A program made the translations under genes and the position numbers. From assembly GCA_043763995.1 (NCBI GenBank), contig JAYUKZ010000066.1, positions 722 to 64,721 on the forward strand: a stretch of DNA of 64,000 nucleotides, read 5' to 3'. The notes under the pieces were generated by a model. That model saw nothing but the letters and a program-made list of their open reading frames with translations, ran no database searches and was not told the DNA's origin. How positions within the stretch are numbered: the first letter of the stretch is position 1; the number at the start of each line of letters is the position of its first letter. The DNA comes from Fibrella sp. Its GTDB lineage: Bacteria; Bacteroidota; Bacteroidia; Cytophagales; Spirosomataceae. Below are positions 116-63,313 of this stretch, one piece after another.

Positions 116-473
116 TGAGGGGCCTTGATAGTGTACACAAATTTACCCGTTTTTCGCCGGGAATGGAAATGGGTTTTGCCCACGAAACCCCCCCACCATT
201 TCAGTAGAGCCAGTGAGGAGTTGACTGTTACAATCGTTGCGATTTTAAAGAACATCCAGCGGGCGGGGGCTACCGTTGCCCAACCCACCGCCGATACGTA
301 CTTGCATTGTCCTGTCCGATTTTTTGGACACTAGTAGTTTCAGGGCGGCGGCATCCGGGCAGGTTGTTCCATTTTTGCAACCAGTCCCCAAAACTAAGCC
401 AGGTACGTTGCTGTGGGGACGAAAACGACCATAATAGCGTCCTTTGCAGTGCAGTACGTTTTCCACTTTTCTC

Positions 474-1016
474 ATGCACCTTCCCCGCAAACTGGTCCTC
501 CAGGAATTGAACCGGCTTTCTGTCGATGCGTTTAAAGCCGCCAAAAAATTTCCGTACTGCCTCGTCCTTGACGATATCCGCAGCCTCAACAACGTGGGGT
601 CGGTATTCCGCACGGCGGATGCCTTCCGGGCCGAAACGTTGTATCTGGCGGGCGTTACGGGCACCCCACCCCACCGCGACATTACCAAAACCGCCATTGG
701 GGCCACCGAATCCGTTGCCTGGCAGCACATGCCCGACATTGATGGGCTGGTGGGTACGTTGCAGGCGGCTGGGTACGTGGTGGTGGCCGTTGAGCAGGCC
801 GAGGGTAGTGTGGCCCTACCCGATTTTTGGCCCGACCCGGCGCGGCAGTATGCGTTTGTGTTGGGTAACGAAGCGCTGGGGGTGCGCAGCAGTGTGGTAG
901 AACGGGCTGATCTGGTGCTGGAAATACCACAGTTCGGCACCAAACACTCGCTTAACGTGGCCGTCACGGCGGGGGTAATCTGCTATGATTTCATCAATAA
1001 GATAACAAAAACTTAA
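474..1016 (+). CDS. SpoU/TrmH-family RNA methyltransferase
   Basis: LVLDDIRSLNNVGSVFRTADAF, FVLGNEALGV and SLNVAV SPOUT motifs; ATG at 474 preferred over the ORF start at 444. Confidence 0.9.
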   Translation: MHLPRKLVLQELNRLSVDAFKAAKKFPYCLVLDDIRSLNNVGSVFRTADAFRAETLYLAGVTGTPPHRDITKTAIGATESVAWQHMPDIDGLVGTLQAAGYVVVAVEQAEGSVALPDFWPDPARQYAFVLGNEALGVRSSVVERADLVLEIPQFGTKHSLNVAVTAGVICYDFINKITKT

Positions 1017-1079
1017 TATTGACCTTGCATTTATCCCAATTATTTCGTATTTCTTTGTAGATTTTTTTCTAACACAACC

Positions 1080-1592
1080 ATGACAGAAAACAAAAAGAAG
1101 ACTAAGCCTTCGGTGGCCCTGACCTCCGAGATCATCCATGTGGTGGAAGCCAAGCTGACAGAGGCTGGAGAGGCGACCAAAAAGATGAAAAAAGCCATCG
1201 AGAAATCGGCGGAAAAGCTTTCTAAGAAGCTGGACAAACTGGTTAGCAAAGCGACTAAGAGCAAAGCCAAGGATGCCGCGAAGGCCACCAAGAAAGCGGC
1301 TGAAAAGACCAAGAAGGATGCTACGAAAGCTGCCAAAAACCTGGCCAAGTCGGCCAAAAATGCTAAGCGTACAGTTGCCAAAAAAGCAAAAGAGGCCGTA
1401 GCCGTGGTGAAAACTCCAGTAACCGCACCCGCCAAAGCCGCTCCGCCCAAAGCGGTTGCCCCCGCCCGCGCTAAAGCCACGCCAACAGCTACCCCGCGCC
1501 CTGCCCGCACCGCCACCCCCAAAGCCGCCACCCCAAAAACAGGTACCACACCTGCCGGAACGCCGCCCGCCGAAACGCCGTCTGCCGAGTAA
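1080..1592 (+). CDS. Lys/Ala/Pro-rich histone H1-like basic protein
   Basis: 170 aa dominated by K/A/T/P (KAAEKTKK, PAKAAPPKA); followed by a terminator. Confidence 0.65.
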   Translation: MTENKKKTKPSVALTSEIIHVVEAKLTEAGEATKKMKKAIEKSAEKLSKKLDKLVSKATKSKAKDAAKATKKAAEKTKKDATKAAKNLAKSAKNAKRTVAKKAKEAVAVVKTPVTAPAKAAPPKAVAPARAKATPTATPRPARTATPKAATPKTGTTPAGTPPAETPSAE

Positions 1593-1627
1593 AAAAGTTA
1601 ATAGTGCCGCTGAGGCTGAACGAGTTA

Positions 1628-1658
1628 TACCCGCCCAAAAGGCGGGTATTTTTTTTGC
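1628..1658 (+). terminator. Rho-independent terminator
   Basis: atacccgcc-caaaa-ggcgggtat followed by a T run. Confidence 0.85.
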
Positions 1659-1763
1659 TACCCCTAAATCCTGTGTTGACGTGTGACAATAATCTATAAC
1701 TTTACGTCTACAGCCAGTTAGTAACGCTTTATACCGTTTTTAAGGGCACACTCACCGTCGCGT

Positions 1764-2657
1764 ATGCATAATATTGCTACCTATTTGCTCCGTAACTGGC
1801 ATTACGGACTATTTGTTATTGTGGCCTTTGGTCTGCTCGCCCACTACAGCGCAGAGGCTCTGAAACTAGGCTGGTACATCTGGACAGCTACCGTGGTGGT
1901 GCTCTACATCATTGGCTACTTCATCTGGCGCAACGCCCGTGAACACCAAACACCCTACGTTCAGAAGGAGGTACTCGATACCATTGTCCACGAGTTCCAA
2001 ACGCCCATCTCAGCCATCAAGATGGCGGCCGATATCCTGGCCACACCCTTTGGACAGTCGTCGGAAGCGCGGACGGAGAAATACATCCAGATCATTCAGG
2101 AGGAAACCCAACGTCTTCAACAACAGGTAGATGTGATGCTTAGCCTGGCCCGCGCCGACCGTGACCGGCTTACGCTCAGTGTAGATGCGGTGGATGTACA
2201 CCAACTGATTCAGTCTATTTCTGAGCGGCATGGCCCCTACCTTACCTTACACCTCGAAGCGAGGCAACCCATGCTCCTGGCCGACCGGATGCACCTCACT
2301 AACGTGATTCATAACCTGCTGGATAATGCTGTGAAATACAGCTCCGGCGAGCCGGAACTGACCATTCAGACTGAAGACGGTTTTGGTGGTTTGTTGGTGT
2401 GCGTAACAGACCGGGGGCTGGGAATACCAAAACACCTGCACCGAAAAATCTTCAAACCCTTCTATCGCGTCAGCGAGAACGACCGGAGTAGCGTGAAAGG
2501 ATTTGGCCTGGGCCTGACCTATGTGCAGCGAATTGTGCAGGCCCATGCCTGGCATCTGGACGTGGTGAGCGAGGTAGGAAAAGGTAGCGAGTTCAGAATT
2601 AGATGCCCGCAGGATTCGCTGGCGTTGCCGGCCAAGTTGGTAGCAACTAATGCCTGA
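1764..2657 (+). CDS. Orphan sensor histidine kinase with minimal membrane sensor
   Basis: H-box VHEFQTPISAI, N-box NLLDNAVKYS, G1 DRGLGI, G2 GFGLGL; two N-terminal hydrophobic segments. Confidence 0.9.
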   Translation: MHNIATYLLRNWHYGLFVIVAFGLLAHYSAEALKLGWYIWTATVVVLYIIGYFIWRNAREHQTPYVQKEVLDTIVHEFQTPISAIKMAADILATPFGQSSEARTEKYIQIIQEETQRLQQQVDVMLSLARADRDRLTLSVDAVDVHQLIQSISERHGPYLTLHLEARQPMLLADRMHLTNVIHNLLDNAVKYSSGEPELTIQTEDGFGGLLVCVTDRGLGIPKHLHRKIFKPFYRVSENDRSSVKGFGLGLTYVQRIVQAHAWHLDVVSEVGKGSEFRIRCPQDSLALPAKLVATNA

Positions 2658-61626: not shown

Positions 61627-61645
61627 AAACGCCTACTTCTTTCAT

Positions 61646-62752
61646 ATGATTAAGTCATCAATTACTAAATTTATAGCTGCCCTGACGCTGGTTTTTGGTA
61701 CGCTCACGGGCGTTCTGGCACAAGAGCATACCCCCCACGAGCGCACGGAAACACCCGCTGCGGGAGAGAAAAAATTCAACGTGGGCGAGATGATTACCCA
61801 CCACATCAGCGACGATAAAGGTTGGGAATTCGCCCACGGCCTCACCCTGCCCCTGCCCATCATTTTGTATTCGGCAGACCGGGGCCTGGAAGTGTTCTCG
61901 TCCTCACGCCTGCACGAAGGGACCATCTACAACGGATACAAAGCTGAGCACGGCCACATTCGCCGGGTCGATGTTGCCGGTAAACCACTGGAGGAGGTTC
62001 ACGTAACCGACTTGAGTATTACCAAGAATGTGGCCTCGCTCATGCTCAGTGCCATCTTGTTGCTGGTCATTTTCACCTCCATTGCCGGTTCCTACGGTAA
62101 GAACAAAGGCCGTGCGCCCACCGGATTACAGTCATTGCTGGAACCCATTGTGCTGTTTGTGCGCGACGAGATTGCCAAGCCAAACCTGGGGCCGAAATAC
62201 GGCACGTACCTGCCCTACTTGCTGACGCTATTTTTCTTTATTCTGGTCAATAACTTGCTAGGGCTTTTGCCGGGCGGAGCCAACCTCACCGGCAACATTG
62301 CCGTAACCATCGTGCTGGCCATCATCACGTTTTTGGTCACGAATTTCAGCGGCAACAAACACTACTGGATGCACCTGGTGCGGCCCACGGGTGTGCCATT
62401 GGCCCTGCTGCCCATCATGATTCCAGTCGAAATTGTGGGCTTGTTTATGAAACCGCTTTCGCTCATGATCCGGTTGTTTGCCAACATCACGGCGGGCCAC
62501 ATCATTATTCTGGCGTTGCTCTCGCTGATTTTTATTGCCCGTAACGCCGGTGGCGCGGGCATGGGTTGGGGCATCAGTGCCATTGTGGTGCCGTTTACCC
62601 TGTTCATGAACCTGATTGAACTGCTGGTGGCGTTTCTTCAGGCGTTTATTTTCACGCTGCTCACCTCTATGTACATCGGCAGTGCCATTGAAGACAGTCA
62701 CGAAGCCGACCACGGCATCGGCTACAGCGGCCACGGCGAAGAAGTTGCTTAG
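61646..62752 (+). CDS. atpB: ATP synthase F0 subunit a
   Basis: HHISD, SITKNV, NLTGNI, KPLSLMIRLFANITAGH, ELLVAFLQAFIFTLL. Confidence 0.97.
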   Translation: MIKSSITKFIAALTLVFGTLTGVLAQEHTPHERTETPAAGEKKFNVGEMITHHISDDKGWEFAHGLTLPLPIILYSADRGLEVFSSSRLHEGTIYNGYKAEHGHIRRVDVAGKPLEEVHVTDLSITKNVASLMLSAILLLVIFTSIAGSYGKNKGRAPTGLQSLLEPIVLFVRDEIAKPNLGPKYGTYLPYLLTLFFFILVNNLLGLLPGGANLTGNIAVTIVLAIITFLVTNFSGNKHYWMHLVRPTGVPLALLPIMIPVEIVGLFMKPLSLMIRLFANITAGHIIILALLSLIFIARNAGGAGMGWGISAIVVPFTLFMNLIELLVAFLQAFIFTLLTSMYIGSAIEDSHEADHGIGYSGHGEEVA

Positions 62753-62814
62753 ATTGCTCTTACACGATTCCAAAGTCGGGATGCAAAAAACCTGCTGATT
62801 ACCAGGCAATTTTT

Positions 62815-62848
62815 AAATCCAAAATCCCCGATCCGCAATCCCAAATCT
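62815..62848. repeat. Heptamer short tandem repeat
   Basis: aaatcca aaatccc cgatccg caatccc aaatc. Confidence 0.6.
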
Positions 62849-62888
62849 TTTTTTCTTTTGTTTTTTTCACTTATAAATCTGTTTGACG

Positions 62889-63146
62889 ATGATCGCTTTT
62901 ATGCTGTCAATTTTGTTGGAAGCAACCGGTAGTGTAGCCGTAATGGGTGCCGCTATTGGGGCTGGTTTAGCCGCCATTGGGGCTGGTTTGGGTATTGGTC
63001 GTATTGGTGGTAGTGCCATGGAAGGCATTGCCCGTCAGCCCGAAGCGGCTGGCCGGATTCAGACTGCCATGCTGATTATTGCCGCCCTGATTGAGGCCGT
63101 AGCCCTGTTTGCTGCCGTAATCTGTTTGTTGGTAGCTCTGGCCTAA
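62889..63146 (+). CDS. atpE: ATP synthase F0 subunit c
   Basis: [30 protein letters not shown]. Confidence 0.97.
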
Positions 63147-63313
63147 CGGCTTGGTTTCCAGTAGGTATTCTGTCTGCGCACTAGGCAATGACCCACAGAA
63201 TGCACCGCTTTGGCGAACGTACCTGCCCGTTGGGGTTGCCGCAGGCAGGTACGTACCCAACCCCCACAAAAGAAAGAACCAGACGTTTATTTTTCCTTTA
63301 GTTCATCCTGATT

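Follow-up and report, generated by a model that had tools for sequence, protein, structure and literature searches.

The nonamer CAGGTACGT occurs 53 times by exact search in a 64-kb stretch of DNA from a biofilm metagenome (contig JAYUKZ010000066.1; the whole stretch is hereafter termed the window), with 28 copies on the plus strand and 25 on the minus strand, or 0.83 per kb. In 100 dinucleotide-preserving shuffles the mean number of copies was 0.41 and the maximum 3, confirming the approximately 100-fold over-representation that had been proposed when the sequence was first read. The heptamer GGTACGT preceded by CA or TG is a lineage-specific word of Fibrella and Fibrivirga: it is a feature of double-stranded DNA, free of orientation and under a strong directional force, and it fills about 80% of the positions tolerated by proteins. 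The original prediction gave at least 52 copies; the copy at 17793 (minus strand) had been overlooked and the one given as 35274 should read 35275, and the remaining coordinates were correct.

The base following CAGGTACGT is T in 31 copies, close to the earlier estimate of about 30, and the next two bases are TG in 21; the flanks further out are random. The GGTACGT core, also suggested previously, was borne out, with 84 occurrences in the window, preceded by CA in 53, TG in 15, TA in 4, and any other dinucleotide in at most 2. The TG form, TGGGTACGT, is two positions away from CAGGTACGT. There are 27 possible single-mismatch variants of CAGGTACGT, each with 0 to 4 copies and totalling 16 (0.25 per kb), and relatives that lack the motif contain them at 0.29 per kb. 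Because these variants are at background while the exact word is found at 0.83 per kb versus 0.012 per kb in the motif-less relatives, CAGGTACGT is very sharply defined. The claim that one-mismatch variants are frequent was therefore wrong, and the frequent variant is the two-mismatch TGGGTACGT. A maximal-order Markov expectation (50.4 versus 53 observed) is uninformative, since the sub-words are themselves dominated by the motif.

Codon, peptide and repeat controls

Synonymous codons were shuffled within each gene, preserving every protein sequence and the codon usage of each gene. Only 2.7 ± 1.6 of 41 genic copies were left (maximum 8), and the enrichment thus survives this control. The genic copies use all six reading frames (peptides QVR, TYL, xGTx, xVPx, and others), extending the earlier observation of several frames. 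In the native genes of the window, 35 of the 43 peptide-compatible places (81%) carry CAGGTACGT, with 1.27 expected from codon usage, and 14 of 20 carry TGGGTACGT, with 0.64 expected. In 249 kb from the motif-less relatives Spirosoma, Larkinella, and Nibrella, the filled places number 3/86 for CAGGTACGT and 2/72 for TGGGTACGT, just as codon usage predicts. Compatible peptides occur 2.2-fold more often in the window than in these relatives, indicating that the word altered amino acids too. For example, the site at 60378 encodes TYL in PorW/SprE of the window and ILL in Fibrivirga algicola, so here the word arrived with an amino acid change.

The sequence flanking the copies is unconserved beyond T at +1 and G at +2, and orthologous sites are separated by substitutions. 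The copies were therefore made in place and not inserted, and a dispersed repeat of the repetitive extragenic palindrome (REP), miniature inverted-repeat transposable element (MITE), or Correia type was rejected. The small number of recurrent peptides among the copies (QVR, TYL, GT, and VP) would be in keeping with an artefact, whether it came from codon or dipeptide usage, a dispersed mobile repeat, or the assembly of the metagenome. However, the protein-preserving shuffle abolishes the signal, relatives with the same peptides fill only 3% of the sites, the unconserved flanks and the near-absence of indels between orthologous sites speak against a repeat, and the word is found in isolates (Fibrivirga algicola, Fibrella aquatica, Fibrella sp. 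WM1, and the plasmids of Fibrella sp. ES10-3-2-2). An artefact is excluded, its probability being negligible.

Distribution and conservation in the clade

In a GldM-based scan with one genome per species, the window adjoins Fibrivirga algicola (86% amino acid identity), whose gldM locus (L001) is syntenic and contains 9 copies of the word in 21.6 kb. The word is absent at the gldM loci of Spirosoma, Larkinella, Nibrella, Dyadobacter, Runella, and more distant Cytophagales. Searching with the Tsp protease identified Fibrella species as the nearest relatives. At the Tsp locus, which is syntenic and independent of the gldM locus, the numbers of CAGGTACGT and TGGGTACGT are 13 and 10 in an uncultured Fibrella (about 22 kb), 8 and 9 in F. 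aquatica, 14 and 5 in Fibrella sp. WM1, and 1 and 0 in Rudanella lutea. The sole closer relative from a metagenome scan was a contig (L081) with 89% GldM identity and 3 copies in 5.5 kb. Strain-level variants were sought by mapping metagenome contigs of two runs to the window, which yielded nothing beyond fragmentary unitigs and, in conserved genes, matches to other species. The window falls within the Fibrella/Fibrivirga clade of the Spirosomataceae, in agreement with the original assignment to Cytophagales, and the word is present in all sampled members, at two independent loci and on plasmids. The enrichment is accordingly not confined to the window but extends to Fibrivirga algicola, to three Fibrella genomes and the Fibrella plasmids, and to one related metagenome contig.

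When the window is aligned with a clade member (about 75% nucleotide identity), some 9 to 12% of all 9-mers match exactly. Conservation of the motif sites in orthologues, a check proposed at the outset, is far higher: 12 of 23 sites are identical with the Fibrella locus L161 (background 10.5%, P=8e-7), 9 of 20 with L163 (background 8.7%, P=2e-5), 5 of 14 with Fibrivirga (P=0.007; CAGGTACGT sites only), and 3 of 4 with L081. Motif sites are thus conserved between species 4 to 6 times as often as other 9-mers, and a conserved site keeps its own form, CA or TG. Orthologous sites are 1 to 5 substitutions apart, with a gap inside the 9-mer in only 7 orthologue states. Where the word is present in one genome only, the others have near-matches, and outgroups have states such as CAGGTACGG and CGGGTACGT at the same codons. 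Differences between motif and near-motif orthologues fall at all nine positions and comprise 38 transversions and 25 transitions. This shows that copies arise in place by point substitution from near-matches, sometimes with an amino acid change, and that once made they are retained across speciation. The distribution over all nine positions and the transversion majority also rule against a simple origin by very-short-patch (T:G) repair; of the methylation- or repair-driven readings raised previously, this narrow version is disfavoured.

As a separate observation, the Telluribacter humicola locus (L011) contains GGTACGT 11 times in 21.6 kb, about 4-fold over chance and without preference for a CA or TG prefix; it may represent the same word in a weak or old state, in a genus that is not a sister.

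Placement of the copies in the window

All copies are listed below; "kept" refers to an identical site in Fibrella loci L161, L163, or L164, in Fibrivirga L001, or in metagenome contig L081, and ORF is open reading frame.

Copies of CAGGTACGT
400..408 (+) hypothetical ORF 245-967, antisense
2914..2922 (+) alpha/beta hydrolase, antisense
4713..4721 (-) FAD oxidoreductase, sense (QVR)
4913..4921 (-) FAD oxidoreductase, sense
5342..5350 (+) FAD oxidoreductase, antisense (NVPD)
5915..5923 (+) FAD oxidoreductase, antisense; kept in L161
6207..6215 (+) FAD oxidoreductase, antisense (TYL); kept in L161
8855..8863 (+) M28 peptidase, sense (SGTL)
10388..10396 (+) intergenic, 14 bp past M28 peptidase stop
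10942..10950 (+) FKBP isomerase, sense
12922..12930 (+) Tsp/Prc peptidase, sense (QVR); kept in L163, L164
13597..13605 (-) Tsp/Prc peptidase, antisense (TYL); kept in L161, L163
14994..15002 (+) trypsin-like peptidase, sense (QVR); kept in L161, L163, L164
16797..16805 (+) HlyD/CusB-like adaptor, antisense; kept in L161, L163
17319..17327 (+) CusA/CzcA resistance-nodulation-division (RND) pump, antisense (TYL)
17793..17801 (-) RND pump, sense (QVR); the copy overlooked earlier; kept in L161, L163
18141..18149 (-) RND pump, sense (QVR)
21014..21022 (-) RND pump, sense (PGTL)
21956..21964 (-) hypothetical ORF 21858-22247, sense
24260..24268 (-) M19 dipeptidase, sense (QVR)
25434..25442 (+) intergenic, abuts putative start of UbiE methyltransferase gene
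26069..26077 (-) UbiE methyltransferase, antisense (TYL)
26923..26931 (-) intergenic, directly past outer membrane protein (OMP) beta-barrel gene
27369..27377 (+) intergenic
28305..28313 (-) intergenic; final copy ahead of tRNA-Val and island
34192..34200 (+) sole copy within island, 44 bp upstream of integrase gene
35275..35283 (-) intergenic, 21 bp past right island repeat
38317..38325 (-) intergenic
39714..39722 (-) intergenic, 2 bp past phosphoribosyltransferase stop
40311..40319 (-) 81-aa membrane-like ORF 40175-40420, sense
40872..40880 (+) NuoN, antisense (TYL)
41764..41772 (+) NuoN, antisense
42898..42906 (-) hypothetical ORF 42886-43317, antisense
44401..44409 (-) intergenic, between convergent genes
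45576..45584 (+) SucD, sense (SGTL); kept in L001; outgroup near-matches e.g. CGGGTACGT, CAGGTACGC
46051..46059 (-) DUF4271 gene, antisense
47618..47626 (-) HemD, antisense; kept in L001
48610..48618 (+) PorP/SprF, sense; kept in L001
49307..49315 (+) intergenic, porP-gldK
51758..51766 (+) GldM, sense (QVR); kept in L081; CAGGTGCGT in L001
52512..52520 (+) GldM, sense (TGTL); kept in L081; CGGGTACGA in L001
54235..54243 (-) intergenic, 6 bp past gldN stop; adjoins terminator hairpin, not inside it
55683..55691 (+) UvrC, antisense; kept in L001, L081; outgroups CAGGTACGG or CAGGTACGC
56157..56165 (-) intergenic, PBP1A stop-uvrC start hairpin, left arm with 56199; TGGGTACGT form in L001
56199..56207 (+) intergenic, right arm of inverted pair with 56157
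58901..58909 (+) PorW/SprE, antisense (NVPG)
60378..60386 (+) PorW/SprE, antisense (TYL; ILL in L001)
60824..60832 (+) PorW/SprE, antisense (NVPG)
60996..61004 (-) doubtful 97-aa ORF, or intergenic
61520..61528 (-) ORF upstream of atpB, antisense; kept in L001
62204..62212 (-) AtpB, antisense (TYL)
63217..63225 (-) intergenic atpE-atpF, left arm of inverted pair with 63246
63246..63254 (+) intergenic, right arm of inverted pair with 63217

Copies of TGGGTACGT
751..759 (+) hypothetical ORF 245-967, antisense
770..778 (+) hypothetical ORF 245-967, antisense
4140..4148 (-) SDR dehydrogenase, sense
4634..4642 (-) FAD oxidoreductase, sense; kept in L161
5598..5606 (+) FAD oxidoreductase, antisense; kept in L161, L163
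9150..9158 (-) M28 peptidase, antisense; kept in L161, L163, L164
12596..12604 (-) Tsp/Prc peptidase, antisense; kept in L161, L163
15959..15967 (-) HlyD/CusB-like adaptor, sense
16133..16141 (-) HlyD/CusB-like adaptor, sense; kept in L161, L163
22538..22546 (-) polysaccharide flippase, sense; kept in L161
24830..24838 (+) M19 dipeptidase, antisense
57215..57223 (-) PBP1A, sense
58781..58789 (-) PorW/SprE, sense
59810..59818 (-) PorW/SprE, sense
63251..63259 (-) overlaps the 63246 copy (CAGGTACGTACCCA); sole intergenic TG-form copy

The strand ratio of 28:25 in the window becomes 70:74 when pooled over the clade, upholding the initial impression of no strand polarity, and the pooled ratio of sense to antisense copies is 48:66 (P=0.11). 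The cumulative GC skew is monotonic across the window. The lack of strand or sense/antisense bias rules out Chi and the replication-oriented FtsK-orienting polar sequences (KOPS) and architecture imparting sequences (AIMS), as well as transcription-linked or RNA-level signals and primase or other replication-coupled signals.

After proper calling of atpE and the OMP gene, 16 of the 53 CAGGTACGT copies are intergenic, matching the number first given, in the approximately 12% of the DNA that is non-coding; this is about three times the genic density. The TG form is intergenic in 1 of 15 copies and coding in 14 of 15. We read CAGGTACGT as the optimum form and TGGGTACGT as second-best, tolerated under coding constraint. 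Outside the island described below, CAGGTACGT is spaced more evenly than random (coefficient of variation (CV) 0.72, P=0.006), as is the GGTACGT core (P=0.002). The shorter Fibrella loci tend in this direction too (CV 0.75-0.88), none of them significantly by itself, and at the Fibrivirga locus the CV is 0.82 for the core and 1.00 for the two 9-mer forms. Two inverted pairs form hairpins, 56157/56199 between the genes for PBP1A and UvrC and 63217/63246 between atpE and atpF. Close pairs (<50 bp) number 2, with about 2.2 expected by chance for 53 sites, and because this is chance level no enrichment of inverted pairs is claimed.

A recent island and resident plasmids

An integrative island of 6.6 kb and 39-46% GC (28544..35188) lies at the tRNA-Val gene (28424-28499), bounded by 66-nt direct repeats (28478-28543 and 35189-35254) that are 89% identical and each contain a terminator hairpin. 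In the region 28424-35254 the integrative element measures 6.7 kb. Its cargo comprises an integrase, a VapE-like gene, a CHC2/Toprim primase, a helix-turn-helix (HTH) regulator, and two unknown ORFs. The island contains a single CAGGTACGT versus about 5.8 expected at native density (Poisson P ~0.02), and neither of its two peptide-compatible sites is filled (0/2). This negative control shows that recently integrated DNA is depleted in the word. The plasmids of Fibrella sp. ES10-3-2-2 (CP155472.1 and CP155474.1; L166-L168) have the GGTACGT core at about one per kb (151 in 150 kb), with copies also in conjugation, CBASS/defence, and toxin-antitoxin regions. A CA or TG prefix precedes 25% of the plasmid core copies versus about 65-80% on clade chromosomes, and the core-free gaps on the plasmids are low-GC insertion sequence (IS) or replication patches.

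Words of other Cytophagales

An unbiased 8-mer scan of 160 Cytophagales loci found other hyper-abundant words: TTATACTT in seven Pontibacter species (L046, L054, L058, L059, L065, L073, and L078), CTATAGTT in P. humidus (L055), RGGTACYT in Rhabdobacter roseus (L017), and GGGGTAGG in three Hymenobacter metagenome-assembled genomes (MAGs; L053, L077, and L096). A few other loci show a weaker over-representation of AAGTACTT. The four hyper-abundant words reach 1-2.4 per kb and, within genes, use several frames and both orientations. In these lineages 36-62% of the sites compatible with the own word are filled versus 3-6% expected, and sister lineages are at background. Between Pontibacter species, TTATACTT sites are conserved at 11/21 and 15/26 (P ~6e-6 in both cases). 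In P. humidus, CTATAGTT sites are at new positions and old TTATACTT sites are decaying, as a shift in reader specificity predicts. The words are alike around a central TA (GGTACGT, GGTACTT, AGTACTT, TATACTT, and TATAGTT), a likeness that is suggestive, not proof, of a shared, drifting reader.

Three metagenome loci (L088, L094, and L153) have over-represented 8-mers (AGTCGTAAGT-like, AATGAGGAA, and GTGGCTGA) with long conserved flanks; longer repeats, dispersed or tandem, are a likelier explanation for them than words of the present type. Locus L057 is labelled as a Janthinobacterium lividum MAG, yet it is a Cytophagales-type gldM locus whose GldM has 43% identity to that of the window, near Hymenobacter values; it is probably a mis-binned contig.

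Gene content and other features of the window

The genes of the window are an ordinary housekeeping set of gliding Bacteroidota, including the type IX secretion system (T9SS) cluster porP-gldK-L-M-N, uvrC, porW/sprE, atpB/E/F, nuoN, and genes for PBP1A, malic enzyme, the Tsp protease, and a CusA-type pump. The pump gene (17256-21833, minus strand) is a single ORF of 1525 aa, in which a CusA/CzcA RND pump (residues 13-1102) is followed by a TolC/OEP-like C-terminal domain (~1210-1470); gene calls in two Fibrella genomes show this fusion as well, 1502 and 1487 aa long. Three intergenic copies (~17095-17225, ~22350-22460, and ~25225-25335) of a palindromic repeat, each about 110-130 bp, have the pattern TAACCCCCAAACC...CCCCTGAAGGGGG...CCCCCTTCAGGGG...GGTTTGGGGGTTA and terminator-like hairpins on both strands. 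The repeat looks like a REP/MITE-like element unrelated to the 9-mer. Short, partly tandem GATTTGGGATT / AATCCCAAATC repeats lie in intergenic DNA beside gene starts (10656-10680, 25189-25215, and 62837-62847).

What maintains the word

By its properties the word belongs to the class formed by the DNA uptake sequences (DUS) of Neisseriaceae, the uptake signal sequences (USS) of Pasteurellaceae, and highly iterated palindrome 1 (HIP1) of cyanobacteria (PMC4390886; PMC5861425; bioRxiv 10.1101/2025.10.24.684340). The original prediction had placed it there, and the absence of polarity, use of all frames, 3-fold intergenic enrichment, island depletion, conservation, and dialect-like variation agree. 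We tentatively favour, at somewhat less than even probability, a DUS/USS-like tag of self-DNA that would have spread by biased uptake and recombination of kin DNA. The word would be the preferred target of a sequence-specific DNA-binding component in a DNA-uptake or transformation pathway, as DUS is for ComP in Neisseria. Word-bearing fragments from dead kin would be taken up and recombined more often, and word-carrying alleles would hence be over-transmitted (molecular drive, possibly reinforced by selection) until about one per kb was reached; changes in the specificity of the reader would yield genus-level dialects. Biased uptake is favoured because the word is asymmetric with a graded flank, has genus-level dialects, is depleted in new DNA, is evenly spaced in the window, and is near complete saturation, which is expected of drive and not of a structural role. 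It is also favoured by the existence within the phylum of natural transformation with preference for own DNA, described in Riemerella (PMC7965970).

Several points weigh against biased uptake. The plasmids are as rich as the chromosome, which a cell-autonomous process explains equally easily. Only in the window does even spacing reach significance, and the words of Pontibacter, Rhabdobacter, and Hymenobacter occur in clusters. No excess of one-mismatch variants was found in the window relative to motif-less relatives, whereas decayed copies of USS are common. We know of no naturally competent member of the clade or of any Cytophagales, a full-text literature search for natural transformation in Hymenobacter returned nothing relevant, and a full-text search found no paper pairing "uptake sequence" with Bacteroidota or the searched Cytophagales taxa. 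No genes for uptake machinery or a ComP/ComN-type minor pilin receptor lie within the window; the clade sequence inspected for them comprised the window of about 64 kb and 20-kb loci. About half of DUS and USS lie in predicted terminators (bioRxiv 10.1101/2025.10.24.684340), whereas no terminator-like stem in the window contains the word.

Three other explanations were considered. The word could be HIP1-like, the target of one or more resident DNA methyltransferases or of a chromosomal protein, and selected for a cell-internal role in nucleoid or domain organisation or as a non-polar recombination hotspot. Enrichment and conservation between species match what Xu et al. described for HIP1 (PMC5861425), two palindromes (GTAC and ACGT) lie within the word, plasmids and chromosome both carry it, and its spacing in the window is even. 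We nevertheless consider this role unlikely: CAGGTACGT is not palindromic, filling 80% of permissible sites goes far beyond the needs of spacing or structure, no DNA methyltransferase gene lies within the window, and HIP1, too, is currently being recast as linked to transformation (bioRxiv 10.1101/2024.09.10.611283; 10.64898/2026.06.24.733823). If instead repair or gene conversion resolved near-motif mismatches toward the motif on any replicon, the word would be a functionless, neutral by-product. Saturation of opportunities whatever their position, enriched plasmids, the lack of excess one-mismatch variants, and a patchy phylogenetic distribution, as for an accessory enzyme, would all fit. 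Against this, the observed spectrum of changes is impossible for a T:G very-short-patch-type enzyme, spacing in the window is more even than random, and the intergenic preference for CA over TG fits graded binding better than repair. Nor are we aware of an enzyme described as correcting toward a 9-bp word, and we regard such a by-product as distinctly unlikely. A self-marker for nucleases or defence, by which word-rich DNA would be spared or repaired and word-free DNA degraded in a Chi-like logic without polarity, would account for lineage-specific words that are on all long-resident replicons and missing from the newly integrated island (1 copy) and low-GC plasmid patches. However, known Chi sequences are strongly co-oriented with replication, unlike the word in the window and in the pooled clade, and the benefit per site would be tiny, so that 80% saturation is difficult to account for; we know of no non-polar system of this sort, and judge this explanation very unlikely.

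Returning to biased uptake, it is possible, though we lean toward doubting it, that the Cytophagales (Spirosomataceae and Hymenobacteraceae) hold an unrecognised sequence-specific system of DNA uptake or self-recognition, whose target word would be drifting between genera. If so, uptake-sequence biology would have arisen independently here, for the first time in Bacteroidota, and it would follow that natural transformation is frequent among these bacteria of soil, fresh water, and biofilms. The words could then also raise transformation efficiency for Cytophagales genetics.

Hyper-abundant words have been described for few groups only (DUS, USS, HIP1, and the polar Chi type), and each has revealed a DNA-handling pathway that shapes genome evolution. 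A 2025 survey gives DUS of Neisseriaceae and USS of Pasteurellaceae as the uptake sequences. A literature string search for the 9-mer returned PCR primers only, and, as the original prediction had supposed for Cytophagales, no such word was found in the literature searched for the phylum. The word adds a new, sharply defined case from an unrelated phylum; its saturation is unusually strong, and neighbouring genera supply natural replicates in the form of dialects. Harmless, culturable isolates of Fibrella, Fibrivirga, and Pontibacter make uptake or protection of self-DNA, and the reader protein, testable. The words can also mark native versus recently acquired DNA and help to bin metagenomic contigs.

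Comparison with known systems

DUS (GCCGTCTGAA and its dialects) and USS (AAGTGCGGT) are likewise non-palindromic words of 9-10 bp at about one per kb with a weaker flanking preference. As with our word, they are found in both orientations and inside genes in several frames, at a cost to protein sequence, and they show intergenic enrichment, depletion in recently acquired DNA, and conservation between related species. Genus-level dialects, represented here by the CA and TG forms in the clade and by the Pontibacter, Rhabdobacter, and Hymenobacter words, and occasional inverted-pair hairpins are further points of likeness. The word differs in belonging to another phylum, in its unrelated sequence, in having no known competence or receptor, in showing neither concentration in terminators nor an excess of one-mismatch variants, and in being as abundant on plasmids as on the chromosome.

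HIP1 (GCGATCGC) shares a 15- to 300-fold over-representation, copies within and between genes, sites conserved between genomes beyond codon expectation, a debated function, and a recently proposed link to transformation. A periodic distribution on a 10-90 kb scale is a further trait of the HIP1 type, beside which the window spans 64 kb. However, HIP1 is a palindromic octamer that orphan methyltransferases recognise and that most cyanobacterial genomes share, whereas CAGGTACGT is asymmetric (its reverse complement is ACGTACCTG, and it is palindromic only internally, at GTAC and ACGT), is confined to one small clade, and is replaced by other words in neighbouring genera. Chi and KOPS/AIMS are also short over-represented words read by a DNA-processing protein, but they are few-fold enriched and strongly co-oriented with replication, in contrast to the approximately 100-fold enriched and non-polar CAGGTACGT.

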